From Synergistetes bacterium HGW-Synergistetes-1 (lineage in GTDB: Bacteria > Synergistota > Synergistia > Synergistales > Synergistaceae): a stretch of 64,000 nt of DNA. The translations under genes and the position numbers were made by a program. This document shows positions 3,184 to 57,469 of the stretch, piece by piece (the stretch's first letter is position 1; every line of letters begins with the position of its first letter). Location: assembly GCA_002839185.1 (NCBI GenBank), contig PGXO01000004.1, forward strand, positions 276,806 through 340,805, given 5' to 3'. The notes beneath the pieces are model-generated. The model saw only the letters and a program-made list of their open reading frames with translations. It searched no databases and had not been told where the DNA came from.

Positions 3184-3311
3184 GCAATTGGGGCATCTCG
3201 GAGCCCTGGTTTAGCAACACTCGAAGTCCTGCGCTTCGACGTATGACCAATACGCCTTAGCTTGAACTTCTTCGAGTTGCGTCACCATCATCTCCGATCT
3301 GCTCCAATTGC
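3184..3311. repeat. 128-nt inverted-repeat module (family F): termini gcaattggggcatctcggagc / ctccgatctgctccaattgc around nested hairpins
   Basis: The terminal 20-21-mers are reverse complements with a few mismatches. The identical 21-mer recurs at 23100-23120. A related copy lies at 13298-13447. Interior hairpin is cttcgacgtat-gacca-atacgcctt. Confidence 0.65.
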
Positions 3312-3375
3312 GGAGGAATTGTTTATTAGAAATAACAAATTGAAAAAGGTCACTAGGATCAAGAACTAAAATCAC

Positions 3376-3494
3376 CGTCATTCCCGTATGGACCTGAGCG
3401 GGAATCCAGCGTCTCAGAACTTAGGTTATTACAAAGTTTTAAAGATTTAAACAAAAGACACTGGATCCCGGCTCAGGTGCATACCGGGATGACG
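3376..3494. mobile_element. MITE-like core element, copy 1 (~36-nt imperfect terminal inverted repeats cgtcattcccg...cgggatgacg)
   Basis: Left end: cgtcattcccgtatggacctgagcgggaatccagcg. Reverse complement of the right end: cgtcatcccggtatgcacctgagccgggatccagtg. AT-rich ~50-nt loop. Related copies at 7041, 37628, 45237 and 57151. No coding capacity. Confidence 0.6.
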
Positions 3495-3540
3495 AAGAGT
3501 GAAAAATGGTTATGAAAATAGTTTGACAGTATTTTAAACG

Positions 3541-3586
3541 ACTGCTTGCCAATTGCTTGCCCACTCTTGCCAATTGCTTGCCAGTC
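3541..3586. repeat. Tandem 11-nt CTTGCC sub-repeat array (right-arm orientation)
   Basis: actgcttgcc aattgcttgcc cactcttgcc aattgcttgcc agtc. Same flavour at 7378-7436, and inverse (ggcaagc) at 57033-57055. Confidence 0.7.
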
Positions 3587-3672: not shown

Positions 3673-5646
3673 TTGAAGAAAACCTCTAAAAATGTTGGGA
3701 TGTATATAATACTGATCGTTCTTGTTGTCAGTCTGGTGAACGTATTCTTGACGCCGGATGCAAACAAGTCCGGTCAGGGTGCTGAGGTACTTCCTTATAG
3801 CCAGTTTTTGAACGAAGTAAACGCAGGCAATGTTGCCAAGGTAAAGATAGACCACGAGCAGCTCAAAGGAACATTGAAATCCGGCAAAGAGTTTACAACT
3901 TATATCCTTGATCCCGGAACACTGCCCAGTGAGATATCCCAGAAGGGCGTTGAAGTCGAGGTCGTTCCTCCGCCAAAGAACTCATGGCTGACGTCCCTGC
4001 TTGCTTCCCTGCTTCCCACACTGCTTCTGATAGGTGTATGGATATACTTCATATACAACATGCAGGGCGGGGGAAACAAGGTCATGGGCTTTGCAAAGAG
4101 CAAGGCCAAACTCTTTATGGACAACAGGCCAAAGGTCACGTTTGATGACGTTGCGGGCTGCGACGAGTCCAAGGAAGAGCTTGAAGAGGTCGTCCATTTC
4201 CTCAGGGATCCCGCAAAGTTCACCCGGCTTGGTGCAAAGGTACCCCGAGGTGTACTGCTTCTGGGTGCACCGGGAACGGGTAAGACCCTTCTTTCAAGGG
4301 CTGTTGCCGGAGAGGCCAATGTGCCCTTTTTCAGCATAAGCGGATCTGACTTCGTTGAAATGTTTGTCGGTGTCGGTGCTGCGCGTGTCAGGGACCTTTT
4401 TGAGCAGGCCCGCAAGAACCAGCCGTGCATAATATTCATAGACGAGATAGACGCTGTAGGACGTCATCGCGGTGCCGGTCTCGGAGGCGGACACGATGAA
4501 CGTGAACAGACACTTAACCAGCTTCTTGTCGAGATGGACGGTTTTGAAGCGGGGACAGGCATTATCCTGCTTGCCGCAACAAACAGGCCTGACATACTTG
4601 ACCCGGCGCTGCTCCGTCCTGGACGTTTTGACAGGCAGATAGTTGTAGACAGGCCGGACGTAAACGGAAGGCGCGACATACTGAAGGTGCATTTGAAAGA
4701 CAAGAAGGTCAGCAAGAAAGTCGACCTTGATGTCATTGCCCGCAGGACACCCGGTTTTGTCGGTGCTGACTTAGCCAACCTTGTAAACGAAGCCGCGCTT
4801 CTTGCAGGTCGGAGAGGCAAGGCCAGCCTCGGAATGGCAGAGTTCGAAGAGGCCATCGACAGAGTAATGGCAGGTCCTGAGCGAAAGAGCAGAGTAATAA
4901 GCAAGAAAGAGCGCGAGATCATCGCATACCACGAAGCCGGACACGCGCTGGTCGCAAGCAAGATAGACGGAAGCGATCCGGTACATAAGATATCAATAAT
5001 ACCGCGCGGCCACATGGCGCTTGGTTACACACTGCAGCTGCCGGAAGAGGACAGGTTCCTCATATCGAAGAAAGAGCTTTCTGACAGGATAACGATACTG
5101 TTGAGCGGTCGTGTAACAGAAATGCTCAAGTTCGGTGATGTTACGACAGGAGCTTCGAACGACCTTGAAAGAGCTACACAGATCGCAAGGCAGATGGTGA
5201 CCGAGTTTGGCATGAGCGACAGGCTTGGGCTGGTAACGCTTGGCAGGAAACAGCATGAAATCTTCCTTGGCAGGGATATCATGGAGGACAGGAACTACAG
5301 CGAGGAGATCGCCTACGCGATAGACCAGGAAGTCCGTAGTATGATAGATGAGTGCTTTACCCGAGCAAAGAAGATCCTTACCGAAGAAAATGAACGACTT
5401 GAGGAGATAACAGCGCTGCTTCTGGAGAAAGAAGTCCTTGAAGGCGACGAGCTTGACGAACTTCTTGGGTACCCGAAGAAAGATCACCCGGCCTCAACTG
5501 CCGGATCTGAGGATGAAGGATCCGAAGAGGAAGAGACTGAAGATAACGGATCAGAAACAGAAGAGGAAGAAGATAAAAAGAAACAGCAGGAAGAAGAAAG
5601 TTCTGAAGATCAGGATGATGATGATCCTGACGAAGAGGAAGAATAG
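3673..5646 (+). CDS. ftsH: ATP-dependent zinc metalloprotease FtsH
   Basis: Walker [12 protein letters not shown] region, HEAGHA zinc site, N-terminal TM helices. TTG start with gaggt 7 nt upstream. Unusually long acidic C-terminal tail. Confidence 0.97.
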
Positions 5647-5885: not shown

Positions 5886-6162
5886 GCAAATCGATGGGGA
5901 ATCAATGGGTAATCAATTGGGAGAGGCTGCGGCGTGGATAATGCCGCGGGAATCGATAGCAAATCAGTTGGTTGGTTCATATAATTCGTTATAGTGAAGG
6001 TTCAAAGTGCCTGGATCCGGGATCTCAGTGAGAGGCCAAGTTTTCAGATCTAAACAACTGATTCGCCATTGATTACCCATTAACTCACCTATCGATTTCC
6101 GCGGCACGATTCTTGCCGCTGCCCCTAACAATCGATTTGCCATTGATTTCCCACTGATTCCC
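5886..6162. repeat. Foldback element: left arm of GNNAATCRRTT units, ~80-nt centre, right arm of complementary units; one GCGGC-type hairpin in each arm
   Basis: Left: gcaaatcgat ggggaatcaat gggtaatcaatt ... ctgcggcgtggataatgccgcggg aatcgatagcaaatcagttgg. Right: caactgattcgccattgattaccc ... ccgcggcacgattcttgccgc ... aatcgatttgccattgatttcccactgattccc. Confidence 0.8.
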
Positions 6163-6818: not shown

Positions 6819-6962
6819 TGCGGCGAGATATCTGCCGCGGTAATCAATTGGTAATCGGTTGCAAATCTATTGCAAATCAATCGTTAGGGACGGCGGCGAG
6901 TACCGTGCCGCGCAAAGTGGCGATTTCATTGCCGCGAAGCAATTGCAAATCAATTGTTTGGA
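6819..6962. repeat. Left arm of a composite foldback element (AATCRRTT units plus two GCGGC-type hairpins)
   Basis: ctgcggcgagatatctgccgcgg taatcaattggtaatcggttgcaaatctattgcaaatcaatcg ... gccgcgaagcaattgcaaatcaattg. The matching right arm is at 7378-7556. Confidence 0.75.
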
Positions 6963-7040: not shown

Positions 7041-7313
7041 CGTCGTTCCCGAGTGCTCCAGTCGGGAATCCAGCGGCTTTTGTTTAGGCCCCAAAAATAA
7101 AGAATAGAACAGATCCATAAGAACTAAATCCCCGATCTCAAATCGCACTCGAAACAGTGTTGACACTAAGGTTTATCTATGAGTTTCTTTGACGAGAAAC
7201 AGTGTCCTTCTGATCTCGGAACGCACTCGAAATAGTGCGGATACTAAGGTTTATCTATGAGTTTCTCTGACGAGAAACAGTGTCCTTCTGATCAGAAGCA
7301 TAACGGGATGACG
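7041..7313. mobile_element. MITE-like core element, copy 2, carrying an internal 78-nt tandem duplication
   Basis: Left end cgtcgttcccgagtgctccagtcgggaatccagcggc; right end cgggatgacg. Lies at the centre of the 6819-7556 composite. Confidence 0.55.
7144..7299 (+). repeat. Direct tandem duplication, 2 x 78 nt
   Basis: The unit cgcactcgaaa[c/t]agtg...ctaaggtttatctatgagtttct[t/c]tgacgagaaacagtgtccttctgatc starts at 7144 and again at 7222. A partial third copy is at 57302-57326. Confidence 0.85.
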
Positions 7314-7377: not shown

Positions 7378-7556
7378 CGCTTGCCAACTGCTTGCCAACC
7401 GGCTTGCCAACGCTTGCCATTTTCTTGCCCTCCCTTCCAACCGACTCCCCATCGATTGCCAACCGATTACCAATCGATTACCGTGGCAGGATTTTTGCCA
7501 CAGTCCGAAACTATTGATTTGCCATCGATTCCCCATTGATTACCAATCGACTCCCT
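7378..7556. repeat. Right arm of the composite foldback: five CTTGCC units grading into AATCGATT-type units with a GTGGCA...TGCCAC hairpin
   Basis: cttgccaactg cttgccaaccgg cttgccaacg cttgccatttt cttgccctccc ... atcgattgccaaccgattaccaatcgattaccgtggcaggatttttgccac ... attgatttgccatcgattccccattgattaccaatcgactccc. Confidence 0.75.
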
Positions 7557-9702: not shown

Positions 9703-12463
9703 AAACCAGCTCGTAGTGGTGACGGGCCCATCGGGTTCCGGCAAGTCTTCACTGGCTTTCGACACTATCTACGCCGAGGGGCAGAGACGCTATGTGGAAT
9801 CCCTCTCGTCATATGCCAGGCAGTTTTTAGGAATGGCGGACAAACCCGATGTGGACGACATTAGCGGACTGTCTCCGGCCATATCGATAGAGCAGAAGGG
9901 AGCCGGTCACAATCCGCGCTCAACTGTCGGGACCGTTACAGAAATTTATGACTATTTGAGGCTTCTTTTCGGCAGAGCCGGTACTCCGCACTGCCCAAGC
10001 TGCGGCAAGGAAGTGCGCCGTTACAGCGTTGACGAGATAGTGGACAAGATATACAGAGACTATGACGGCAAACCGATAGAGATCCTCTCACCGCTTATAA
10101 AAGGCAAAAAGGGAGAGTATAAGAACCTGCTGCTGAAGCTCCATCAGCAGGGCTACCTCAAAGCCAGGGTGGACGGGACAGTCCTCTGGCTTGAGGAGGA
10201 GATAGAACTCGACAAGAAGAAAAAGCACACTATCGAATGCATCATCGACAGGCTGAGGGTGAAGGAAGATAACCGCCAGCGGCTTTCGGAAGCTATAGAG
10301 ATGGCAATGAAACTATCTGAAGGATTTGTTCTTCTGGTCTCCGAGGGCATGGATGACCTGGAACTCACAGAAAAGTATATCTGTCCGGATTGCGAGATAA
10401 GTCTGCCGGAAATAGAACCGAGACTTTTTTCCTTCAATAACCCATACGGGGCATGTCCCGACTGTTCAGGCCTTGGGGTGCACCTCCATTTTTCCGAGGA
10501 ACTTGCTGTCAATCCTGAATATCCTATCGGAGACGGCGGTTTTATCCCGTGGAAGAGCATGAAGTATATGATACAGAAAGCTGAGCTCATGGCCGCCCGT
10601 CACAAAGGCTGGGACCTCTCCAAACCATTTAAGGACCTTCCGGAAGATGCGAAACAGGCCCTCCTGTATGGCACTGATGAAGTGATCCCGATGATATTCA
10701 GCGACAGGAACGGGGACTGGGAATACAACGGCCATTATCCCGGACTGCTCCCCTGGCTTGAGAAACGTCTTGGCGAGACTGAATCTGATAACTACCGTGA
10801 AGAACTCCTGCGCTACCGTACAGAAGACATCTGTCAGACCTGCAGCGGAGCGAGGCTCAAGCCGGAGGTACTTGCCGTCACCCTTGGCGGATACAACATA
10901 GCTCAACTTACAGAGATGCCTATTGAGGACCTTATTAAGGTCCTTGACACAATGCAGCTTGGCGCAAGAGAGCAGAAGATAGTCGGGCAGGCTTTGACGG
11001 AAGTTCGTAAGAGACTTGCCTTCCTTAACAACGTAGGTGCTGGATATCTCAGCCTTTCAAGGCGTGCTGACACGCTGAGCGGCGGGGAGAGCCAGAGGAT
11101 AAGGCTTGCCACCCAGATCGGATCCCAGCTTACAGGAGTCCTGTATGTACTGGATGAACCGACGATAGGACTTCATCCCAGGGACACGAACAGATTGCTG
11201 GACACGCTCAAGGATATCAGGGATATAGGCAATACAGTTATAGTAGTCGAACATGACAGGGAAACAATGATGGCAGCTGATTACATACTGGAGCTTGGTC
11301 CCGAGGCCGGCGAAAACGGCGGGAACCTTATCGCATGCGGAAGCGCAGCAGATATCATCAGCGGGGATACCCCGACAGCCCTCTATCTCAGAGGTGAGGC
11401 CGACGGGACATACAGGCCTAAACCAAAAAGACGGAAGGCGAAGGGAAAGATAAAGGTAACGGGGTGCTGCGAGAACAACCTGAAAAATATCGATATTGAT
11501 GTCCCGCTTGGAGTCCTTGCTTCACTGAGTGGTGTATCAGGCTCAGGTAAGAGCACATTCCTGTACGAGATACTCTATAAGGGCCTCAAAGGAAAATTCG
11601 ACAGGGAATACCGGGACCGCGCAGGAAAATTTGACAGCATTTCGGGTTACGAGTCACTGAGGAACGTGGTTCTCGTTGACCAGAGCCCCATCGGAAGAAC
11701 CCCGCGCTCGAACCCCGCAACGTACACCGGTGTTTTTACTCCCATAAGGGAGTTCTTCGCGCAGCTTCCCGAATCCAAGCTCAGGGGATACCAGCCGGGC
11801 CGTTTCAGCTTCAACGTAAAGGGCGGGCGCTGTGAGTCGTGCAAAGGGGACGGGGAACTCAAGGTCTCAATGCTCTTTTTGCAGGATGTCTATGTCAAAT
11901 GCGATGTCTGCAAAGGAACGAGGTACAACAGGGAGACGCTCGAGGTAAAGCACAAGGGGCTGTCGATCGCTGATGTGCTTGAACTGACGGTAGACGAGGC
12001 CGTGGAGCATTTCAAGGATATTCCGAGGATAGTCAACAAACTGAAAGTGATCCAGGAGGCGGGGCTTGGGTACATAAAACTTGGACAGCCTGCGCCTACG
12101 CTGAGCGGGGGAGAGGCCCAGAGGGTCAAGCTCGCTACTGAACTGAGCAAAAAGTTCAGGGGCAGCACCCTCTATCTCCTTGACGAACCAACTACAGGGC
12201 TTCATTACAACGATGTCAAAAAGCTGCTCAAGCTTCTGCACAAGCTGGTCGATCACGGTAGCTCCGTGCTCGTCATTGAGCACAATCTCGATGTCCTTGC
12301 CTCGGCTGATTACATAATGGACCTTGGCCCGGAAGGCGGCAGAAGGGGCGGAGACCTTATTGCAAAGGGAACTCCTGAAGAGATCGCCGCATCGGACGGC
12401 CCGACAGGAAAGTACCTTGCAGAATTTTTCAACGATATCAAGGAAGGCAGGAAAGCCGGATGA
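9623..12463 (+). CDS. uvrA: Excinuclease ABC subunit A
   Basis: N-terminal [14 protein letters not shown], two ABC modules ([18 protein letters not shown]; [16 protein letters not shown]) and zinc modules. The start must lie before residue 8, hence an 80-nt overlap with uvrB. Confidence 0.97.
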
Positions 12464-13297: not shown

Positions 13298-13447
13298 CCG
13301 CGATCTGCCCCAAATGCGGCAATTGAGATTTAGAGCAAGTGATAACGACGCAATGCGCAGTGGAGCCTTTCGAAGGCGTATATGAATACGTCGAAGGGAG
13401 GCTCCGCAAGTCTTGCTATGTTAGCGCTGCTATAAATCACAATTGCT
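13298..13447. repeat. Family F inverted-repeat module, second locus (solo terminus plus one ~130-nt copy with the interior hairpin inverted relative to 3184-3311)
   Basis: ccgcgatctgccccaaatgc resembles the 3292-3311 terminus. The interior ggagcctttcgaaggcgtat-atga-atacgtcgaagggaggctcc is the reverse complement of the hairpin words at 3232-3262. Confidence 0.5.
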
Positions 13448-21456: not shown

Positions 21457-21730
21457 GCTGCCGCGGGAGTCAATAGGGAATCGATAGGAAATCAATAGGC
21501 AGTCAATGGGTAATGCCTACGGCGAAGATCGTGCCGTGGGAATCAATTGCAATTCGGTTGGGAGTCAATTGGTAAGATTTTAGGATTACACAACTGATTT
21601 GCTATCGATTCCCAATTGATTACCAATAGAATCTCGCGGCACAGCCATTGCCGCAGCTCCTAACAACTGATTTGCAACCGATTACCAATAGATTACCAAT
21701 AGAATCCCGCGGCACGTTTTCTGCCGCACC
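21457..21730. repeat. Foldback element (AATCRRTT arms, GCGGC-type hairpins, short asymmetric centre ggtaagattttaggattacacaac)
   Basis: Left arm 21457-21580, right arm 21593-21730. 40 nt (21563-21602) are identical to 40069-40108. A 41-nt module (21614-21654) is identical to 32846-32886. Confidence 0.85.
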
Positions 21731-30349: not shown

Positions 30350-30396
30350 GGCTGAGCGATAGCTGAGCAGTTGCTGAGCAATAGTTGAGCGGTCGT
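30350..30396 (+). repeat. Tandem 11-nt GCTGAGC sub-repeat array (left-arm orientation)
   Basis: ggctgagcgat agctgagcagtt gctgagcaat agttgagcggtc. Same flavour at 37424-37468 and 45126-45170; inverse at 45461-45505. Confidence 0.8.
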
Positions 30397-30419
30397 AGGG
30401 GCGGGAGGACAGTGGCGCC

Positions 30420-30652
30420 TTGGCCACGGAAAATTTGCAGCCTCTGGGCTGCGGAGAATTCGCAACTTAATAACCATGCCGCTGGTGAATTTGCGACGAA
30501 CTTATGTCGCGGTGAATTAAATCTTAATGATTCATTAACCAATTCTCCGCTGAATGTTACATTCAGCAAATTCTCCGCAACGCAAAGCGTTGTGAATTCA
30601 CCGCAGCGTTATCGCTGCAAATTCACCGCGATGCATGGCATCGCAATTCACC
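30420..30652. repeat. GAATTC-box / mini-hairpin array with inverted left and right halves
   Basis: Left boxes: ggaaaatttgc, gcggagaattcgc, gctggtgaatttgc, gcggtgaatt. Right boxes: ccaattctccgc, gcaaattctccgc, gtgaattcaccgc, gcaaattcaccgc, gcaattcacc. Unique short palindromes lie between boxes (tgaatgttacattca, aacgcaaagcgtt, agcgttatcgct, gatgcatggcatc). Confidence 0.8.
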
Positions 30653-32425: not shown

Positions 32426-32996
32426 AGCGGCTAGGGGCGTGCCGCGGGAGTCAATTGGGAATCGGTCGGAAATCGGTTGGGAATCAATGGGTAGGGCCTG
32501 TGGCATATTTCGTACCACGTCAGTCAATTGCAAATCGGTGGGTAGTCAATGTGTAGGGCCTGCGGCTAGGATCAAGCCGCGGGAATCAATTGCAAATCGG
32601 TTGGTAGTCAATGTGTAGGGCCTGCGGCTAGGATCAAGCCGCGGGAATCAATTGCAAATCGGTTGGTAGTCAATTGGTAAGACCTGTGGCATAGACCGCG
32701 CCACGGCAGTCGATTGGCAATCAATTGCAAATTAATAGAAAATCAGTTGGAAGTGATTGGCAAGGTCTAAGATACACCAACAGATTTGCAACTGATCACC
32801 AATCGATTCGCAATAGATTTGCAATCTATTTGCCGTTGATTTTTTAATTGATTACCAATAGAATCTCGCGGCACAGCCATTGCCGCGGCTCCTAACAATC
32901 GATTTACAACTGATTTCCAATTGATTACCGATCAATTCCCGTCGGAAGCAGCCGGATGATTTTCCGGCAGCTTCACGTGGCAGGCTGCCATGCCAC
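32426..32996. repeat. Largest foldback element: left arm with four 62-nt higher-order repeats (hairpin plus three 11-nt units), asymmetric centre, inverted right arm, two trailing hairpins
   Basis: 62-nt copies start at 32489, 32551, 32613 and 32675; the middle two are identical. Centre ggcaaggtctaagatacaccaacag. Right arm 32775-32942. Confidence 0.9.
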
Positions 32997-34417: not shown

Positions 34418-34607
34418 TGGGAGTCAGTTGCGAATCGATTGGTAATCAGTTGCAAATCTGTTGGTGTATCTTAGACCTTGCCAATCATTTCCAACTGATT
34501 CCCTATTGATTTGCTATTGATCAGCGATCGACTTCCGCGGCAGGGTCCACGTTGCCGCTTATAATCATTGATTCCCCATTGATTACCAATTGATTCCCAA
34601 TTGACTC
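34418..34607. repeat. Foldback element whose 56-nt centre is the reverse complement of the centre at 32741-32796
   Basis: The reverse complement of 34445-34500 matches 32741-32796 at 55 of 56 positions. The arms keep the usual G-linker-left / C-linker-right polarity. Confidence 0.85.
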
Positions 34608-37423: not shown

Positions 37424-37468
37424 GGCTGAGCGATGGCTGAGCAGTAGCTGAGCAGTGGCTTAGCGGTT
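37424..37468 (+). repeat. Tandem 11-nt GCTGAGC sub-repeat array
   Basis: ggctgagcgat ggctgagcagt agctgagcagt ggcttagcggtt. Confidence 0.8.
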
Positions 37469-37488
37469 GTAGAAGCCAAGAGCAGGGT

Positions 37489-37880
37489 CGGGGAATTGCA
37501 TCCTTTGGCTGCGGGGAATTTGCAGGACTTTGTCCTGCGGAGAATTTGCTTGCTTCGCATTGCGGAGAATTTGCCGGAAGACCCTTCCGGCGGGGAATTG
37601 AGACTTTGATCAAGAATCAAAAAGCACCGTCGTTCCCGAATGCCTCCGTCGGAAATCCAGTGGCTTGTGTTTAAAGGTTTTTAAATTCTACAACTGCTGC
37701 GATTGTGAGAAAAGCCGTCAAACGGTTGTTAAATGCGCGGGGAATTGGACCATGAATATTAAAGACTGAATTCTCCGCGATGCGAAGCGAGCAAATTCTC
37801 CAGCGGCGGATGCCGCGAATTCTCCGCAGCCCTGAGGCTGCAAATTCCCCGCACCTACGACCGCTTAGCAAATTCTTCTC
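37489..37880. repeat. GAATTC-box / mini-hairpin arms flanking a partial MITE-like core (37628-37700)
   Basis: Left boxes: cggggaattgc, gcggggaatttgc, gcggagaatttgc (x2), gcggggaattg. Right boxes: gaattctccgc, gcaaattctcc, cgcgaattctccgc, gcaaattccccgc. Core left end: cgtcgttcccgaatgcctccgtcggaaatccagtggc. Confidence 0.8.
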
Positions 37881-38285: not shown

Positions 38286-38343
38286 TAGTAACTACAGCCT
38301 GTTGTCATATCGATATCCTGTCTGATGAAAGGAGGCTGTCTCC

Positions 38344-39036
38344 TTGCCTATTGAAGTTGAATTGATCGCGAGTACACCTGATGCAGCCAGGATAGTTGCC
38401 GCTGCCGCCAAGATCTGTTACAGCCCCTCAGGAGCTGTGGACATACTTGAAGGACTCGACAGAGAAAAAACGGTCTCTTTTCTTAAAATGCTTCGTGAGT
38501 CAGGGCATCTTTCACCATTTGAGCATATATCTTTCACCTTTGCTGTTGAGGGCATAAGCAGGGTAGCTACCCACCAGCTTGTGAGACACAGACTTGCAAG
38601 CTACTCTCAGCAGAGCCAGAGATATGTTGCCATGTCCGGACAGACATGCATAGTGCCTCCTTCGGTACTGAATAATGAAAAAGCACACGCACTATTCATG
38701 AAACAGATCGAAGATGCGTGGAACTGTTATAAAGAACTGGTCGATCTTGGCATCTCCAAGGAGGACTCCCGTTTTATCCTGCCTCATGGAACTGAGACCA
38801 GGCTTGTGATGACTATGAATGCGCGTGAACTACATCATTTTTTCTCCCTGAGGCTTTGCAGGAGAGCTCAGTGGGAAATAAGGGAACTTGCCCGGAAAAT
38901 GCTCATACTGGCAAGGGATGCTGCCCCTGAAATATTTGATCTGGCCGGACCTTCATGTGTTGTTGAAGGTGTATGCAAAGAGGCCCATTCCTGCAACGAA
39001 CCCTACGAGAACATGGAGAAGATGTTGTCTGAATGA
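38344..39036 (+). CDS. thyX: FAD-dependent thymidylate synthase
   Basis: ThyX signature RHRLASYSQQSQRY. Confidence 0.93.
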   Translation: MPIEVELIASTPDAARIVAAAAKICYSPSGAVDILEGLDREKTVSFLKMLRESGHLSPFEHISFTFAVEGISRVATHQLVRHRLASYSQQSQRYVAMSGQTCIVPPSVLNNEKAHALFMKQIEDAWNCYKELVDLGISKEDSRFILPHGTETRLVMTMNARELHHFFSLRLCRRAQWEIRELARKMLILARDAAPEIFDLAGPSCVVEGVCKEAHSCNEPYENMEKMLSE

Positions 39037-39986
39037 AAATTTATATTGCTTTACAGCGGATAATATTATCCGCTTTTATTGCTGTTCCCAAAAGGATACC
39101 CGTTGGCGGACAGGCGGTTATAGAAGGAGTCCTTATGAAAGGCCCGGAACATTGGGGACTGGCAGTCAGAGAACCGGGCGGTTCTATATGGCTTAAAGCC
39201 TGGCTTGGTTCAGATTGGCTCAAAAATGGCATATGGAAGTATCCAATTATCAGAGGCTTTGCCACCATGGTCGAGATGATGAGGATAGGCATGAGGGCAT
39301 TGTCCATTTCTGCCGAGATCAGTCTCGGCGAAGAGGATAAAATATCGCCTCTTGAGATGGCAGGTGCTATTGCAGTTGCTATATTTGCCGTTGCGGGTCT
39401 TTTTGTTGCGCTGCCGATGCTGGTTTCTGAATATCTGACATTCCTTTTAGGACTTACCCATCTTTCTAAGAATATAATGGAAGGTATCCTCAGGGGAGTA
39501 ATTTTTGTGGGATACGTTGCAATGATAGGGCTTTGGAAAGACATACAGCAGGTATTCGCCTATCATGGAGCGGAACATAAAACGATAAATGCATACGAGA
39601 ATGATGCTGAACTCACGCCTGAAAGTGTAGCAAAATTTTCAAGGATTCACAGGCGCTGCGGTACATCCTTTTTGCTTGTAGTGATCTTTGTAAGCATAAT
39701 AGTATTCTCTGCCATAGGGGGAGGCTCACTTCTGTGGAGGATAGGGAGCAGGGTGCTGTTGCTGCCCTTTGTTATAGGCATATCGTACGAATTTATAAAA
39801 GGAGCCTCAAACTCTGAAACATGGGGCAGATACTGTATAATGCCCGCTCTCTCGCTGCAGTACATAACGACAAGGGAACCGAGGCTGGATCAGATAGAGG
39901 TAGCCCTCGCAGCGCTTGACCTGGCTCTGAACCCGGAAGCTGCCGGACAGGATTCCGGCGGGAGTCAATTGGAAATCGATGGGTAA
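39033..39986 (+). CDS. DUF1385 membrane protein (commonly linked to prfA/prmC)
   Basis: VGGQAVIEGVLMKGP and YHGAEHKTINAYE blocks. ATGA coupling to thyX. The last ~15 codons and the stop codon lie inside the repeat element. Confidence 0.85.
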   Translation: MKIYIALQRIILSAFIAVPKRIPVGGQAVIEGVLMKGPEHWGLAVREPGGSIWLKAWLGSDWLKNGIWKYPIIRGFATMVEMMRIGMRALSISAEISLGEEDKISPLEMAGAIAVAIFAVAGLFVALPMLVSEYLTFLLGLTHLSKNIMEGILRGVIFVGYVAMIGLWKDIQQVFAYHGAEHKTINAYENDAELTPESVAKFSRIHRRCGTSFLLVVIFVSIIVFSAIGGGSLLWRIGSRVLLLPFVIGISYEFIKGASNSETWGRYCIMPALSLQYITTREPRLDQIEVALAALDLALNPEAAGQDSGGSQLEIDG

Positions 39987-40200
39987 TCGGTTGGGAGTCA
40001 ATTGGTAAGACCTGTGGCATAGACCGCGCCACGGCAGTCGGTTGGCAATCAATTGTAAATCGGTTGGAAGTCAATTGGTAAGATTTTAGGATTACACAAC
40101 TGATTTGCAATTGATTCCCAATTGATCACCAATAGATTCTTGTGGCACAGCTATTGCCGCAGCCCCTCCCAATTGATTTGCAACCGATTACCGCGGCAGC
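39942..40200. repeat. Foldback element overlapping the 3' end of the DUF1385 gene
   Basis: The hairpin gccggacaggattccggc followed by gggagtcaattggaaatcgatgggtaatcggttggg parallels 32441-32480. Centre and right arm are near-identical to 21563-21700. Confidence 0.85.
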
Positions 40201-40261
40201 ACAGCTGCAGCTTTATGCAGGAATAATTATCCTGCAACTTAAACAGGTGGTGTGATCTTAG

Positions 40262-41335
40262 ATGGAATTAATGGATAAGCTTAGAGAGATCGAAAAAAGT
40301 TATAAAGAGATCGAGGCGCGTATGGCAGACCCTGATGTGGCAAACGATCAACAGGAGATGCAGTCTCTTGGAAAGAAACATGTTGATCTTTCGAAGATCG
40401 TTGATGCTTTTATGAAGTATGAGTCAGTTCTTAAAGGAATAGATGACGCTAAGGAAATGATCGCTGCAGATGACAAAGAAATGGCAGAGCTTGCCAAAGA
40501 AGAGCTCGCCCTTCTTGAAGCACAGGTCGATGATCTGGAGAAGAATATACAGGTGCTCCTTCTCCCCAAGGACCTCAATGACGACAGGAGCGTCATCATT
40601 GAGATAAGAGGCGGAGCAGGAGGAGACGAGGCAGCACTATTTGCTGCGAACCTCTTCCGCATGTACACAAGATTTGCTGAACGTGAGAGATGGAAGACTG
40701 AGATAATTTCCGGAAGCGAGACCGGCATAGGCGGATACAAGGAAATAGTATTCAGGATCGACGGTGTAGGCGCATACAGCAGTCTGAAGTTCGAAAGCGG
40801 CGTCCACAGAGTACAGCGCGTCCCGGAGACAGAGGCAAGCGGCCGCATACATACCTCTACTGCAACTGTTGCAGTTCTGCCCGAAGCTCAGGATGTTGAT
40901 ATAGAAATTCGAACGGAGGATCTCAGGATCGATACATACCGCTCAAGCGGAGCAGGTGGACAGCACGTCAACATGACAGATTCAGCCGTCAGGATAACCC
41001 ACCTTCCATCAGGAATAGTTGTTACCTGCCAGGACGAAAGATCCCAGATCAAGAACAGGGCAAAAGCGATGCAATTCCTCAGGACGAAGCTCTATGATGC
41101 CGAACTTCAGAGACAGAATGACGTAATGGCCGCGGAAAGAAAGGGCCAGGTCGGCACAGGCGATCGCTCAGAGCGCATCAGGACCTATAATTATCCTCAG
41201 AACAGAATATCGGACCATAGAATAAACCTTACTCTCTACAAACTGGATCAAATTTTGGATGGAGATATATATGAGCTGATCCGTGCCCTTTCTGATGCGG
41301 ATCAGGCAGAAAAACTCAAAATGCTCACTGTTTAA
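40262..41335 (+). CDS. prfA: Peptide chain release factor 1
   Basis: GGQ motif ([10 protein letters not shown]). RF1-type tripeptide region RVPETE (P-x-T). Confidence 0.95.
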
Positions 41336-41345
41336 GGTGTGAAAT

Positions 41346-42191
41346 TTGAAACTCTCCGAACTTCGTTCCGAATGTGTTGGTATACTTCTGAGGGAAGGAA
41401 TAGAGAGGCCCTTCTATGCTGTTGATCTCATAATATCAAAAGTTCTTGATATTGAGAGAGCTCTCTTGATAACAAAAGGAGAAATGGCAATTCCCGCGCA
41501 GAAATGTGTGGGAATTTTGTCTATGACAGAAATGCGTTCTAAGAGAGTGCCGCTCTCATATATATTGGGGGAGGCAGAATTCTACGGCAGACCGTTTGAA
41601 GTTGGTGAAGGCTGCCTCATACCTCGGCCGGAAACGGAATTACTGGTCGAAGAAATGCTGAGAGCCTGTCCTGATGCTTCAATGTTCGCTGACTGGTGTA
41701 CGGGAAGCGGATGCATTGGTTTAACATTGCTTCTGGAAAATAACAACTTATTTGGCTACGGTATAGACTCAAGTCAAGAAGCTTTAAATTGGGCAGTTAT
41801 AAATACCAATAAATACAAATTGAAATCAAGATTTAATTTGATATTGAATTCTAACCCTTCTGTTTGCGGCATAGTGCCCGGATCGCTTGATTTCATAGTT
41901 GCCAATCCACCTTATATTCCTTCCAAAGATGTTGAAGGGCTAATGTCAGACGTAAAGGATCACGAACCCATTGAGGCTCTTGACGGGGGAGAGGACGGAG
42001 CAGACTTGTACAGGCTCTTTTTTATTCATTTACCCGGATTGCTCAAAGATGGAGGTTCAATAGGATTTGAGATAGCAGGAGACGATCAGGCGAAGACCCT
42101 TTTGTCGATAGCTCCGTCGAATTTTGTTCTTACGAACAGGATATTTGATTATAATGGCATATTAAGACACCTGACGTGGAAAAAGAATTAA
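41346..42191 (+). CDS. prmC: Release factor glutamine N5-methyltransferase
   Basis: VANPPYIP motif, SAM-binding DWCTGSGCIG, position after prfA. Confidence 0.9.
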   Translation: MKLSELRSECVGILLREGIERPFYAVDLIISKVLDIERALLITKGEMAIPAQKCVGILSMTEMRSKRVPLSYILGEAEFYGRPFEVGEGCLIPRPETELLVEEMLRACPDASMFADWCTGSGCIGLTLLLENNNLFGYGIDSSQEALNWAVINTNKYKLKSRFNLILNSNPSVCGIVPGSLDFIVANPPYIPSKDVEGLMSDVKDHEPIEALDGGEDGADLYRLFFIHLPGLLKDGGSIGFEIAGDDQAKTLLSIAPSNFVLTNRIFDYNGILRHLTWKKN

Positions 42192-42254
42192 AGATAGTAT
42201 AGAATTCTGAAAGTTATATCAGACAAATAATATTTTCGTGAAGGAGCGTTTTTT

Positions 42255-43451
42255 ATGGAAAAAAGAGAACTTGTCATAATTGGAGCGGGACCCGCAGGTC
42301 TCACCTCAGCGATTTACGGCCGCCGCGCCGGCCTTGATGTGCTGCTTCTCGAGAAAGGCATCCCTGGAGGTCAGATCAACATCACTGACGAGATAGAAAA
42401 CTGGCCCGGTGTTATACATTCATCTGGTTCAGATCTTGGTGTTTCCTTTAGGAAGCATGCCGAACATTTTAAAACAGAATTCAGGGACTGCACAGTTTCA
42501 GGAATCGAAATCCGGAACGGAAGCAAGATTGTTTTGACGGATAAAGGCGAAGTTGAAGCCGAAGCGATAATCCTTGCCACAGGAGCAAGCTTCCGCAAGC
42601 TCGGCTGCAAAGGCGAAGCCGAGTTTACAGGCGGCGGAGTAAGTTACTGTGCTGTCTGCGATGCTGCATTTTTTGAAGACGAAACGATTGCGGTAATAGG
42701 CGGAGGAAATGTCGCGGTAGAAGAGGCAGGTTACCTTACCCGCTTTGCATCAAAGGTATATATAATCCACAGACGCGATGAATTCCGCGCGGACAGGCTC
42801 GCGATAGAGCAGGCTCTCTCAAATCCCAAGATCGAACCGATCTGGAACTCCGTTGTTGAATCCATCGAGGGTGAAGGGCTTGTCGAAAAATTAGTGTTGA
42901 AGAACGTCAAAACAGGAGAGGTCTCAGATCTTCCTGTTGCAGGAGTATTCATTTTTGTTGGCACTGAGCCTAACGTATCCTATCTTGGCGAGCCTGGGTC
43001 TGTAGTAAAACAGACAAGAGGCGGCTGGATAGACACTAATGACAAAATGGAGACATCTGTCGAGGGAATATTTGCTGCCGGTGACATCCGTGAAAAGTAC
43101 CTGCGCCAGGTCGTCACTGCTGCAGGTGACGGCGCTGTTGCCTCCATGGCTGCATATTCCTACATTACGGAACAGCTCCACCTCCGTTCTGTGCTGATCG
43201 ACCCAGAACATGTCTACGCCCTTCTGACGTCGAGCATCGACCAGGATCAGATCAACCTTCAGGTCGAAGCTGAAAAATATGCTAAGGAAAGCGGAGTCAA
43301 GATCGCACTTATTGATGGATATAGAAACGCAAGGATGGTCGAAAAACTGGGTATCAAAGAACTTCCGGCGCTTCTTGAACTCAAGAAAGGCGAGATCGTC
43401 CGCTCTGCCAAGCCTGATAATATGGAAGCAGTCAAAGAGTTCCTTAAGTAA
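42255..43451 (+). CDS. trxB: Thioredoxin-disulfide reductase with an ~85-aa C-terminal Cys-less thioredoxin-fold-like extension
   Basis: GAGPAG FAD motif, redox CAVC, NADPH motif HRRDEFRA, GDIRE. The protein continues ~85 aa past the usual TrxB C-terminus. Confidence 0.9.
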   Translation: MEKRELVIIGAGPAGLTSAIYGRRAGLDVLLLEKGIPGGQINITDEIENWPGVIHSSGSDLGVSFRKHAEHFKTEFRDCTVSGIEIRNGSKIVLTDKGEVEAEAIILATGASFRKLGCKGEAEFTGGGVSYCAVCDAAFFEDETIAVIGGGNVAVEEAGYLTRFASKVYIIHRRDEFRADRLAIEQALSNPKIEPIWNSVVESIEGEGLVEKLVLKNVKTGEVSDLPVAGVFIFVGTEPNVSYLGEPGSVVKQTRGGWIDTNDKMETSVEGIFAAGDIREKYLRQVVTAAGDGAVASMAAYSYITEQLHLRSVLIDPEHVYALLTSSIDQDQINLQVEAEKYAKESGVKIALIDGYRNARMVEKLGIKELPALLELKKGEIVRSAKPDNMEAVKEFLK

Positions 43452-43480
43452 GTCCCGGCGGCCGTAAGGGCCATCCGCCG

Positions 43481-43860
43481 GGGAAATTGCAGCCTCAAGG
43501 CTGCGGGGGATTCGCGACATTCGTCGCTGGTGAATTTGCGGCAATGTTTATGCCGCGGTGAATTGGTCCTTAAAGATCAAGCCTTCATTCTCCGGCGGAT
43601 GAAACGCCCGCCAAATTCACCGCAGCTTGATCTTTGCTGCAACTTCCTCACGAGTGTATTTCTCGTAATTTATCCGTGGTTTGAAAAGCCACAAATCTTT
43701 CATTCACCGCAGCTTAAAAAGCTGCAGATTCACCGTGGCATGATACTCGCCGCAAATTCTCCGTCGCGTACACACGACAAATTCTCCGCGGCTTCAAAGC
43801 CGCAATTCCCCACAGCAATATATTGCAGTAATTCCCCCAATTGTTTCATTAGAAACGAAC
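43481..43860. repeat. Longest GAATTC-box / mini-hairpin array (about 4 left boxes, about 10 right boxes)
   Basis: Right-half boxes: aaattcaccgc, cattcaccgc, agattcaccg, aaattctccg (x2), aattccccac. Each is followed by a different 12-18-nt palindrome (gcagcttaaaaagctgc, gtcgcgtacacacgac, gcggcttcaaagccgc, gcaatatattgc ...). Confidence 0.8.
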
Positions 43861-43904
43861 AGCTAGAATAAACAAATGTCATAACAACTCCAGGGGGAAA
43901 CTTA

Positions 43905-45119
43905 ATGAAGAAGTTCCTGATGCTGATTTTCGCTGTCCTAATGATATCTGCTGTCTTTATTTCTCAGAGCCCAGCCTCTGATAAAGACCTGACCTCTGAT
44001 GATATCAGAGAAAAGGAACAAAGGATTACAAAAAACATATCAGAACAGGTAGAGAAGCAGATCCCCCGGGTCAGGGACCCTGAAATTGAGAACAGACTTT
44101 CATATCTTACTGCAAGGATCTCACCGCATATGGGAAGGGATCTTAATTACGAAGTTCGTATAATAAAAAGAAATGACCCTCATGCCTTTTCCCTGCCCGG
44201 AGGACTGACATACATAACGACAGGAATGCTTAAATTTCTTAAAAGTGAAGATGAGATAGCCGCAGTCCTTGCGCGTGAATTTACCCACTCTGATCTTTCT
44301 CATTGGCTTGTCCAGTCATCCCGGAATGAGAAGATAGATTTTCAAACCATGGCAGAAGTTGCTGCGGCGACTCAAAGTGGCAAGGTGGCAGGTAACATGG
44401 TCAGAGCATATCTCAACAGGGCTGTCATTAACTTTTATGACATAGACCTGGAAAAAGAGACAGATCTTAAGGTTCTTGATGTCATTGAAAAAGCAGGAAA
44501 TAATAAGGCAGCCCTGCTGACATTTCTGGAGCGGATGAGGATGGAAAGACTCAAACAGATTTATGTAAGAGGCATAGACATTAAGTACAAGAGCGGATTC
44601 AAACCATTGGAGACAGTAATGGAAACGATGAAATTCCTGAAGAGAAATGACGAGAAAAGACTGACTGACCCTGTCCAGACAGATATGATCCAGGCCAATA
44701 CAGACATGGAAGAAAGAGTGGCGCTATTATTACAGTACTTTAAAGAGAACAACATAGATATAAAAAGAAAGAGTGTACTGAACATACTTCGGGTAAGTAC
44801 TAAGGATCATTTAGGCCGGATAATCCTAAGTATTGACAACACGGAGGTTATGAGTGCAGAGAAGAACGACAGGACTGATAACATATTCGAAGTATTCAAA
44901 TCCAGAATTGACAGAGACCTGCAACTTGAGACAGCCCCATATGACATACAGGTGCAAAATATACTTGGCACCAAAGCGATTTTGATCTCAGGCAGACCTC
45001 TGCTTTACGAGAAAGACCTCACCGATGGAATGCCGAACCTTTTTTATATAAGGGCCCATATAATAAAGGCCCTTACAAAGGCGAGAAGAGAGAATTTTTT
45101 GACGGATTATTACGAATAA
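43905..45119 (+). CDS. M48-family peptidase paralogue with a degenerate zinc site (REFTH instead of HExxH); secreted or periplasmic
   Basis: Signal peptide. Alignable to the downstream paralogue (FSLPGGLTYITTGMLKFLKSEDE). First zinc-ligand His replaced by Arg; EKETD replaces EKEAD. Confidence 0.8.
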   Translation: MKKFLMLIFAVLMISAVFISQSPASDKDLTSDDIREKEQRITKNISEQVEKQIPRVRDPEIENRLSYLTARISPHMGRDLNYEVRIIKRNDPHAFSLPGGLTYITTGMLKFLKSEDEIAAVLAREFTHSDLSHWLVQSSRNEKIDFQTMAEVAAATQSGKVAGNMVRAYLNRAVINFYDIDLEKETDLKVLDVIEKAGNNKAALLTFLERMRMERLKQIYVRGIDIKYKSGFKPLETVMETMKFLKRNDEKRLTDPVQTDMIQANTDMEERVALLLQYFKENNIDIKRKSVLNILRVSTKDHLGRIILSIDNTEVMSAEKNDRTDNIFEVFKSRIDRDLQLETAPYDIQVQNILGTKAILISGRPLLYEKDLTDGMPNLFYIRAHIIKALTKARRENFLTDYYE

Positions 45120-45125
45120 TAATAC

Positions 45126-45505
45126 AGCTGAGCAATGGCTGAGCAGTAGCTAAGCAGTAGCTGAGCGGTCGTAAAGGCAGGCGGGATAACCGCAGGCGGA
45201 GAATTGCGGTCCAAGGCCTCGGAGGTTCAAAATCACTGTCGTTCCAGAATGATCCAATCGGGAATCCAGCGGCTTAGAACTTAGGTTATTACAGGCATTT
45301 AAAGATTTAAACAAAAGAAACTGGATCACCGCTCACGGCCAGAGAGCCAACGAGTTGCGAGTTGCGCGAATCGGCTGGTAGTTACACCAGAGGTATACGT
45401 GGATTACGGAGATAGAAGCATAGCTGGATGACTCGGTAAAAGATTTTTAAGTTTCTACAACTGCTCAGCGATCGCTCAGCCATTGCTCAGCAACAGCTCA
45501 GCCGA
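45126..45505. repeat. Composite element: GCTGAGC left arm (45126-45170), one GAATTG box, MITE-like core copy 4 plus a conserved 59-nt module, GCTCAGC right arm (45461-45505)
   Basis: Left: agctgagcaat ggctgagcagt agctaagcagt agctgagcggtc. Right: ctgctcagcgat cgctcagccatt gctcagcaac agctcagccgat. Core 45237-45340 is alignable to 3376-3470. Confidence 0.8.
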
Positions 45506-56953: not shown

Positions 56954-57469
56954 GGCTAAGCAATGGCTAAACGGCAGGACTTGTGTCCTGAGTGAAGCGG
57001 CGATCTTATCGCCGTGAAGCGATTGTAAGGACGGGCAAGCTATTGGCAAGCGGTTATTGGGGACAGCGACTATAGTCTTGTCGCGGGAATCGGTGGTGAA
57101 TCAATTGCAAATCAGTTGGTAGTCAATAGGTAAGACCTAAGCCCAATCTCCGTCATCCCGGCTGACGGGAAGAGAGCCAACGAGTTACAAGTTGCACGAA
57201 TCGGCTGGTAGTTACACCAGAGGCATACCGGGGAGACAAAAGAGACGAATCTCAGATTCAAGAACGCATTTGTAGTAAGGCGGAAATAAATCTTTTTCTA
57301 TAAGTTTATCTAACGAGAAACACTGTTTTTATGATCAAGGGCACACGGAGATGCAGAGAATGTGATATGCCGGGATTATGGTGATTTGGGGTTTGGGTAT
57401 TTTAACCACTGACTCCCCACTGATTCCCGACTGATTTGCAACCGACTCAAGCGGCATGTTCTTGCCGCA
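56954..57469. repeat. Composite element between cdaR and glmM: the left arm carries four sub-repeat flavours in series, then MITE-like core copy 5 (57151-57380), then a right AATYGATT arm with hairpin
   Basis: ggctaagcaat ggctaaacgg | gtgaagcggcgatcttatcgccgtgaagcgattg | gggcaagctatt ggcaagcggtt | gggaatcggt ggtgaatcaatt gcaaatcagtt ggtagtcaat | core | ccactgactcccc actgattcccg actgatttgc aaccgactc aagcggcatgttcttgccgc. Confidence 0.8.

Follow-up and report, generated by a model that had tools for sequence, protein, structure and literature searches.

A modular family of intergenic palindromic repeats in Synergistaceae, probably retained by the host

Three intergenic sites of the window, the 64,000-nt stretch of DNA analysed here, carry arrays in which an 8-nt core, GGNGAATT, is repeated at 23-30 nt steps and alternates with short GC-clamped palindromes. 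These GAATTC-box arrays are a real and statistically solid feature, and on balance we consider them probably to be lineage-specific non-coding interspersed repeats of Synergistaceae, that is, a modular palindromic element of BIME-, BOX- or MITE-like type that is retained by the host and whose role we infer below. The preliminary description of this DNA, made from the letters of the sequence alone, had missed that the arrays belong to an interspersed, apparently mobile repeat family within a wider mosaic of intergenic modules.

Three arrays in the window and the anatomy of the element

The arrays lie at 30428-30652 (array A), 37490-37850 (array B, extending to 37878 with a degenerate box) and 43480-43837 (array C), with GGNGAATT on the plus strand in the left arm and its complement AATTCNCC, the core on the minus strand, in the right arm. 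Whereas dinucleotide shuffles give 12.7 ± 3.6 exact copies of GGNGAATT, the window has 31, of which 25 fall inside the three loci. A three-box pattern gave seven matches in the window where 0 were expected, which places the arrays, at the positions first reported for them, far above chance. At no more than one mismatch, there are 9 boxes at 30428-30652, 10-11 at 37490-37878 and 12 at 43480-43837, the total for array C rising to about 14 once degenerate units read by eye within 43641-43700 are added; this recount agrees with the earlier figures of about 14 boxes in array C and about 30 in the window. The unit period has its mode at 25 nt, and nearly all units measure 23-28 nt. Arrays are present at the coordinates originally given, but the element itself reaches further, taking in an outer hairpin, a GTCGTAGG motif and 11-nt tandem repeats at 30351-30399 and 37424-37475.

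A full copy spans approximately 250-300 nt, copies overall range from approximately 230 to 390 nt, and none contains a credible ORF. The parts follow one another as optional 11-nt tandem repeats, a GTCGTARG motif, an outer hairpin, the left arm, the centre, the right arm, a further outer hairpin and an inverted flank. In the Synergistaceae loci parsed, the tandem repeats of the flank consist of 3-4 copies of GCTGAGCANNN, GTGAAGCANNN, GGCAAGCANNN or GTCAAACNNNN, and a pattern search for this 11-nt repeat flank returned 15 matches against 0.76 expected. The outer hairpin has the form GGCGGA...TCCGCC. The left arm is built of 2-6 units, each consisting of GGNGAATT, a T or C and a GC-clamped palindrome, and the right arm of 2-5 inverted units (up to about 10 in array C). 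The centre, approximately 22 nt long, AT-rich and with the consensus AAATCTTAAAGACTTAGGRYCC, sets the polarity of the element. Units are direct within an arm and their orientation flips once, at the centre; this architecture, the polar centre and the order of the hairpins are all conserved among copies.

Array A is flanked on its outer side by 11-nt tandem repeats on the plus strand at 30351-30399 (GCTGAGCANNN, about 3.6 copies, with the end GGTCGTAGG), which were detected by TRF at period 11 and have the same flank as a counterpart in other copies. Its left arm (30412-30518, plus strand) comprises the outer hairpin gtggcgccttggccac and four units, with boxes at 30428 (degenerate, GGAAAATT), 30453, 30484 and 30511. 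The AT-rich centre aaatcttaatgattcattaacc, of forward polarity, occupies 30519-30540 and is followed by a right arm of five units on the minus strand (30541-30652), with AATTCNCC boxes at 30541, 30569, 30595, 30620 and 30645.

The outer flank of array B (37424-37475, plus strand), found by pattern search and TRF, holds 3.7 copies of the 11-nt repeat GGCTGAGCAGT together with GGTTGTAG. The first arm (37490-37599, plus strand) has five units, with boxes at 37490, 37513, 37539, 37564 and 37592. Reading of the sequence then places a foreign repeat module, D (gtcgttcccgaatg...cggaaatccagtggctt), inside the array at 37600-37738, between direct repeats of GCGGGGAATTG; the same module is found at 3375-3420 and 45240-45280, and in loci L059 and L011. 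Beyond it lie a box and the centre ggaccatgaatattaaagactg, of reverse polarity, at 37739-37768. The second arm (37769-37878, minus strand) carries four units with boxes at 37769, 37794, 37818 and 37843, then an inverted CCTACGACC, one GCTTAGC word and the degenerate box at 37871.

Array C starts with the outer hairpin ggcggccgtaagggccatccgcc, which begins 5 nt 3' of the stop codon of a thioredoxin-reductase-like gene, with no terminator between, and continues with four units (43457-43564 including the hairpin, plus strand; boxes at 43480, 43505, 43529 and 43557). Its centre ggtccttaaagatcaagcctt, at 43565-43585, is again of reverse polarity. The long arm (43586-43837, minus strand) has approximately 10 units; its boxes stand at 43586, 43614, 43701, 43727, 43755, 43780, 43804 and 43830, and 2-3 further units with degenerate boxes lie within 43641-43700.

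The connector box and its hairpins

A logo of 316 boxes in arrays gave the 13-nt unit consensus GC-GGNGAATT-T-GC, in which the variable base N is A in 47%, T in 31% and G in 21% of boxes. At the position 3' of GAATT, T accounts for 65% of boxes and C for only 17%, which makes GAATTC a minority form. Because T, and not C, mostly comes after GAATT, the box lacks symmetry and has an orientation. It had first been read as a palindromic dimer site, GAATTC or GTGAATTCAC, a reading that does not survive, since the box is asymmetric, has GAATTC in 17% of cases and forms direct repeats inside each arm. A cluster of EcoRI-type restriction-modification targets was rejected on the proportions of C and T after GAATT, and the broader EcoRI or dimer-site idea on the asymmetry of the logo.

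The hairpins differ from one another within an array yet recur elsewhere, in the same order, in other copies. Recurring ordered hairpins include gcatcgcttcgcatcgc, gcagcctttggctgc, gcgacataggaaccatgtcgc and gcgacttgattatgtcgc on one side, and gcgatgcgaagcgagc, gcagcgcagacgctgc and gcgaccggttttgtcgc on the other. The alternation of a constant box with hairpins is therefore upheld, but the hairpins are not unique, as had been thought; they form a shared repertoire in fixed order around the polar centre. The right arm is not a mirror image of the left. Units are common to both arms without being in nested order, which is why no complementarity across the arms had been seen in array C. The earlier statement that left and right hairpins are not complements of each other breaks down for some units, for example 37539-37571 and 37769-37801, which are 94% complementary.

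Our analysis of 256 units recovered 173 distinct spacers, 74% of which have a stem of at least five Watson-Crick pairs, against 7% after shuffling. When similar spacer pairs are compared, change per position is 7.0% in stems and 33.5% in loops, approximately five-fold less in stems, and 61 of 64 two-sided stem changes restore Watson-Crick pairing (e.g., gcgAc..gTcgc to gcgGc..gCcgc), the counts being of sequence pairs and not of independent events. Palindromy is selected and is kept by compensatory change, symmetrically on both strands. The proposed grammar of a constant connector and small stem-loops is thus real, with stems under selection. The commonest spacer contains GCGAAGC, which we take to be an unusually stable DNA mini-hairpin, although we draw no conclusion from it.

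Approximately 97% of stem pairs are Watson-Crick. In a classical strand-specific RNA, G·U pairs would be in excess. Mismatches of the G·T and A·C types numbered 15 and 16 in box orientation, 7 and 7 in element polarity, and 5 and 7, of 443 pairs, on the strand that is sense for co-directional flanking genes; under none of the three strand definitions (box, element or gene) was G·U therefore in excess of A·C. An RNA-only reading is without support because this excess is lacking. The symmetric pairing fits palindromy at the DNA level, and it equally fits an element that folds on whichever strand is exposed or transcribed.

The preliminary description had also suggested a stem formed by pairing of boxes across the arms, for which we obtained no positive support: in nested register the variable box base matches in 17 of 43 cases, with 17.5 expected. 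Arms are usually unequal in box number, and the long box-paired stem was rejected on the two grounds together, namely no covariation of the variable base across arms and unequal arms. The folds predicted for the arrays are highly stable (z-scores from -6 to -10), but values this negative are what any palindrome-rich sequence gives. A search of the window against Rfam at the gathering score returned tRNAs only, and a search of three array-bearing loci in E-value mode returned only sub-threshold, spurious matches; the arrays match no Rfam family, which counts in favour of the preliminary description. The arrays contain no T-tracts and are therefore not canonical terminators.

Distribution, turnover and constraint

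Scanning one genome per species with the three-box pattern yielded at least 120 stretches. About 50 of the 120 listed come from at least nine Synergistaceae MAGs, typically from several contigs each, and the 2.41-Mb chromosome record OY821326.1 contributes seven blocks among the matches listed. The family is found, among the matches listed, only in Synergistaceae MAGs and usually at several loci per genome, a taxonomic range that is to be read as a minimum. Enrichment beyond the three loci, on which the preliminary description had made its own case depend, is borne out by the presence of the grammar in many loci of at least nine Synergistaceae MAGs. The non-Synergistaceae matches that were inspected are plain tandem repeats (minisatellites) with identical, non-palindromic spacers. 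The exceptions are L058 and L005, contigs binned outside Synergistaceae yet carrying the same modules, which are probably mis-binned. All seven three-box matches in IMG/VR were discarded as coding repeats or unrelated iterons, with identical, non-palindromic spacers. Locus L057, from OY821326.1, is collinear with the window over 38289-45394 at 92.6-96.5% identity; it follows that the DNA of the window is from an organism closely related to that of the record.

The family turns over: copies have been duplicated to new sites, have been inserted and lost, and have undergone reshuffling at the connector boxes. The MAG CTOTU7657 contains five copies (L011, L024, L059, L078 and L112) with a near-identical core of approximately 150 nt, unrelated flanks and differing outer units. 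The spacer of L066 that is orthologous to the spacer of array B lacks the array altogether, and the one in L061 has a single unit. Between the orthologs of 39033-39986 and 40262-41335, an array is present in both L057 and L066, the window having a different repeat there, and the two arrays at this orthologous site differ from each other in unit content. In L112 an array stands where the window (3315-3540) has a D-type module, with the same flanking modules, and in L024 a block of module-C and an array is found at the 3' end of a gene, between it and the next gene, whereas the window counterparts of the two genes abut at 12440-12463. No clean pair of empty and filled sites with a target-site duplication was found, orthologous spacers differing by replacement of whole modules; the sole candidate for a target duplication is the direct GCGGGGAATTG on both sides of the module nested in array B.

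Arrays are found in either orientation and in every kind of intergenic spacer. Judged from the centre motif, polarity is forward in array A and reverse in arrays B and C, with all flanking genes on the plus strand, and the intergenic contexts across loci are 12 convergent, 10 divergent and 13 tandem (ORF calls are approximate). The neighbouring genes are of the housekeeping type: a Glu/Gln-tRNA synthetase, PolA, a pyridine-nucleotide disulphide oxidoreductase and two M48 peptidases, as well as rpmE, identified by eye from its translation. A Pfam scan of 16 window ORFs detected no transposase families, and no cas-like genes were found among the same 16. A tblastn search with an IS200 TnpA query had no match in the window or the sampled loci, and no ORF lies between the separated arms of L112. 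Neither an autonomous copy nor a transposase was detected in the scanned window ORFs, between the arm pairs of the loci or in approximately 366 kb of array-bearing loci.

Array C and its ortholog in L057 are 96.9% identical, with 12-13 differences in 384-386 nt and none within 43717-43891. In the same comparison, identity at four-fold degenerate sites is 83.6% for the upstream gene and 79.9% for the downstream gene. Divergence stays normal as far as the borders of the array; over its last 280 nt the upstream gene shows approximately 26 differences, most of them separated by multiples of three. In the spacer 3' of the M48 gene, which is filled with repeats, identity to the ortholog reaches 99.6%. 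In this single orthologous pair that spans an array, array C evolves 3-8-fold more slowly than neighbouring synonymous sites. Array C thus appears, from the one pair, to be constrained by purifying selection, with a local recombination tract as an alternative.

Proposed role, alternative explanations and relation to known repeats

Under the reading that we judge the likeliest to hold, that of a lineage-specific repeat retained by its host, the functional unit would be an oriented connector joined to an extrudable hairpin. Whether as read-through RNA or as single-stranded DNA, either strand would present its 5' arm as a series of GGNGAAUU-hairpin units and its 3' arm as a series of hairpin-AAUUCNCC units. 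Since the two arms are inverted, the same grammar is read on either strand and is hence independent of orientation. The element would most likely have spread in a non-autonomous manner or via recombination at boxes, and the host may keep it as a structured intergenic spacer. Array C, in what is predicted to be a co-directionally transcribed region, would be read through from the upstream gene. The string of hairpins in such transcripts could block 3' exonucleases, or could insulate or uncouple neighbouring cistrons, as REP and BIME sequences do, and the oriented 13-nt connector is a candidate recognition site for a protein.

A broader proposal is tentative, and we give it a rather low probability. 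The arrays would be one module class of a hitherto undescribed, host-maintained intergenic module system of Synergistaceae, with the 11-nt words and further hairpin modules as its other classes. Oriented boxes, and hairpins extruded on either strand, would recruit clade-specific proteins, modules would be exchanged as cassettes through recombination at boxes, and the system would organise or insulate transcription units or the chromosome, and would not be selfish DNA. If true, this would represent a new way to organise or insulate transcription units or chromosome structure.

Two further explanations, each of which we regard as unlikely, emphasise mobility and DNA mechanics, respectively. The arrays might be MITEs in the strict sense, internally deleted derivatives mobilised in trans, whose arms are the ends of an unknown transposon with its transposase binding at multiple subterminal sites (the 13-nt boxes), as in Tn7, Mu and CACTA-type elements. 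Oriented sites that repeat directly within an arm and face the other way in the opposite arm, in numbers that differ from side to side, would be consistent with such ends, as would near-identical copies with different flanks in one genome, variable presence at orthologous sites, and MAG contigs that break inside arrays (L024). However, neither conserved terminal nucleotides nor a target duplication could be defined, and the scanned window ORFs and approximately 366 kb of array-bearing loci supplied neither a transposase nor an autonomous copy; ends that bind a transposase would not be expected to show selection for variable palindromes between their sites, and the constrained ortholog of array C also argues against it. 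Alternatively, the arrays could act as a platform of double-stranded DNA, in which the boxes bind a clade-specific DNA-binding or nucleoid protein and the palindromes extrude as cruciforms or set the mechanics of the DNA, serving a chromosomal role such as domain boundaries or supercoil management and not acting as RNA. BIMEs bind IHF and gyrase. The equal rarity of G·T and A·C in symmetric palindromes, the similar occurrence in divergent, convergent and tandem spacers, the AT-rich centre and the conservation in the ortholog of sequence, and not merely of structure, would all agree with this platform. Yet a spacing of 25 bp does not keep units in phase with the helix, the stems, at 5-8 bp, are short for a cruciform to be stable, the proposal comes without a candidate protein, and symmetric palindromy is equally expected of an element that works as RNA in either orientation.

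We consider very improbable the dedicated structured non-coding RNA, gene or cis-regulator, with a long box-paired stem bearing mini-hairpins, that the preliminary description had put forward. Although the fold z-scores and the compensatory changes in hairpins would suit such an RNA, the element occurs in both orientations relative to flanking genes, in many copies per genome beside unrelated genes, and with variable unit number and content; it shows no G·U over A·C excess on any strand definition and no covariation of the box base N between its unequal arms, and it belongs to no Rfam family. Scarcely credible at all is a CRISPR-like memory array or an EcoRI-type restriction-modification site cluster, for which a superficial constant/variable alternation and the GAATTC of some boxes speak, and nothing else. 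The regular alternation is the only likeness to CRISPR. Direct repeats there measure approximately 23-55 nt, whereas the constant part here is 8 nt (13 nt with flanks), its orientation flips at the centre to give inverted arms, and there is no leader; CRISPR spacers are unique and foreign, whereas those of the arrays are palindromes common to several loci and genomes, where they are reused in the same order. No cas-like gene was found among the 16 scanned window ORFs. The shared hairpins, the short constant part and the inverted arms dispose of the CRISPR analogy drawn earlier, and the restriction-site reading is contradicted by the box logo, with GAATTC in only 17% of boxes.

Among known repeats, the BIME and REP sequences of Enterobacteria and the REPINs of Pseudomonas resemble the arrays in being clustered intergenic hairpin palindromes with many copies per genome and in combining palindromes with short conserved linker motifs in a mosaic; they tolerate transcription within operons and are thought to be mobile and co-opted. 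REP and BIME sequences are defined by a conserved imperfect palindrome of approximately 20-40 nt with a 5' tetranucleotide, and by a cognate RAYT (a Y1 HUH transposase). In REP and BIME it is the palindrome (approximately 35 nt, with a GTAG tetranucleotide) that is conserved and units alternate in orientation, whereas here the 13-nt linker is conserved, the palindromes (12-20 nt) differ, and units are direct within an arm with one flip at a polar centre; tblastn with the IS200 TnpA revealed no RAYT-like gene in the sampled DNA. The element thus lacks two defining features of REP and BIME, the conserved palindrome unit and the alternating orientation. The BOX element of Streptococcus pneumoniae is likewise built of modules, its defined ends enclosing internal subunits whose number varies, and is strongly structured, intergenic, non-coding and without a transposase of its own. 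Its boxB subunits (45 nt) are near-identical, whereas each unit here is a different palindrome in conserved order, and BOX belongs to another phylum and has no sequence similarity to the Synergistaceae element.

MITEs such as Correia/NEMIS of Neisseria, or RUP, share with the arrays a length of less than 600 nt, the lack of coding capacity, an inverted-repeat architecture, insertion polymorphism between related genomes and nested insertions. They have simple TIRs, whereas the arms here are arrays of sub-repeats without definable terminal tips, target-site duplication or parent IS. Descriptively, the element is a MITE, being small, non-coding and multi-copy with inverted arms, but the mechanistic features, a target duplication and a parent element, were not found in the window and the loci sampled. 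Integron attC sites similarly place short conserved motifs around a variable palindromic core and are expected to function in folded single strands; they are single sites of 57-141 nt beside gene cassettes whose R and L boxes pair, in contrast to the cassette-free tandem units of 25 nt with unpaired flanking motifs described here.

Bacterial interspersed palindromic and mosaic repeats are a familiar class, but this architecture and the wider mosaic of 11-nt words are unusual and undescribed, our search of the full-text literature having found no description of such repeats in Synergistota. The design inverts the usual logic of REP, the linker being constant and the palindromes variable, and it reads alike on either strand. 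Synergistaceae are abundant in anaerobic digesters and guts, and their genetics has been little studied. Should the constraint hold genome-wide, the family would provide a tractable case of bacteria domesticating hairpin repeats, as well as a marker for strain typing, assembly breaks and mis-binned metagenome contigs.

The surroundings of the arrays are themselves repetitive. DNA repeated within the window amounts to approximately 3.9 kb, all of it between genes, or roughly 40% of the intergenic DNA, and these repeats obey a strict grammar. Repeats with an 11-nt period occur in at least 13 intergenic regions of the window, and an element of approximately 130 nt with GCAATTGGGGCAGATC inverted ends is among the modules that lie beside or inside the arrays.

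Repeat content of the window

Called open reading frames show an extreme strand bias, with 46 of the 52 lying on the + strand, and about 3.9 kb of the window, approximately 40% of its intergenic DNA, is repeated within the window itself. At least 13 intergenic regions carry short tandem repeats with a period of 11 nt, in three to four copies. Class I repeats, with words similar to AATCAATTGGG or AATCGGTTGG, occur at 5889-5922, 6842-6881, 7437-7555, 21465-21703, 32460-32926, 34424-34604, 39960-40139 and 57406-57436, and class II repeats, with words similar to GCTGAGCANNN, GTGAAGCANNN or GGCAAGCANNN, at 3543-3583, 7378-7419, 30351-30391, 37424-37464, 45126-45166 and 45463-45502. In the examples read, each run is closed by GTAGG or GTAAG followed by a GC hairpin, and some spacers are bracketed by inverted runs, as at 45126-45166 with 45463-45502. 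Longer tandem repeats composed of these 11-nt words and a GC hairpin were also found at 32470-32674 (62 nt, 3.3 copies) and 7144-7293 (78 nt, 1.9 copies).

The spacer 3' of the first M48 gene (45120-45394) is filled with repeats and shares 99.6% identity with its ortholog in L057, a collinear locus of OY821326.1, versus approximately 80% at four-fold sites of the adjacent gene. This sequence comparison suggests that repeat modules other than the GAATT arrays may be under constraint.

Inverted-end element and D module

A MITE-like element of approximately 130 nt with inverted ends GCAATTGGGGCAKMTC lies at 3184-3311, with further copies near 13302, 23100 and 48103 and at 130-262 of L024, a locus of MAG CTOTU7657; the window copy and one in L024 are 98.5% identical. 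At L024, this element together with a GAATT array separates two genes that adjoin each other in the window, at 12440-12463.

The D module, of the form gtcgttcccgaatg-loop-cgggaatccagcggcttagaa, is shared by 3375-3420, 37625-37680 and 45240-45280, as well as by two other loci of the same MAG, L059 (375-420) and L011. Its insertion at 37600-37738 in array B, a GAATT array, is flanked on both sides by a direct repeat, GCGGGGAATTG, which may have arisen by target duplication or may mark a joint left by recombination at the box.

Repeats in metagenomic contigs

L058, binned to Methanobacteriota, and L005, binned to Paceibacterota, each contain complete GAATT arrays whose hairpins and flanking modules are those of the Synergistaceae copies; both are probably mis-binned Synergistaceae contigs. 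Because the short MAG contigs of L024 (at both ends) and L011 terminate inside or beside GAATT arrays, these repeats appear to break short-read assemblies. Separately, in an unrelated viral contig (L126; IMG/VR UViG_3300031241_000009), the perfect palindrome GCGCGGGGAATTCCCCGCG occurs six times, at intervals, within 4346-4540, an arrangement resembling an array of iterons or operators.
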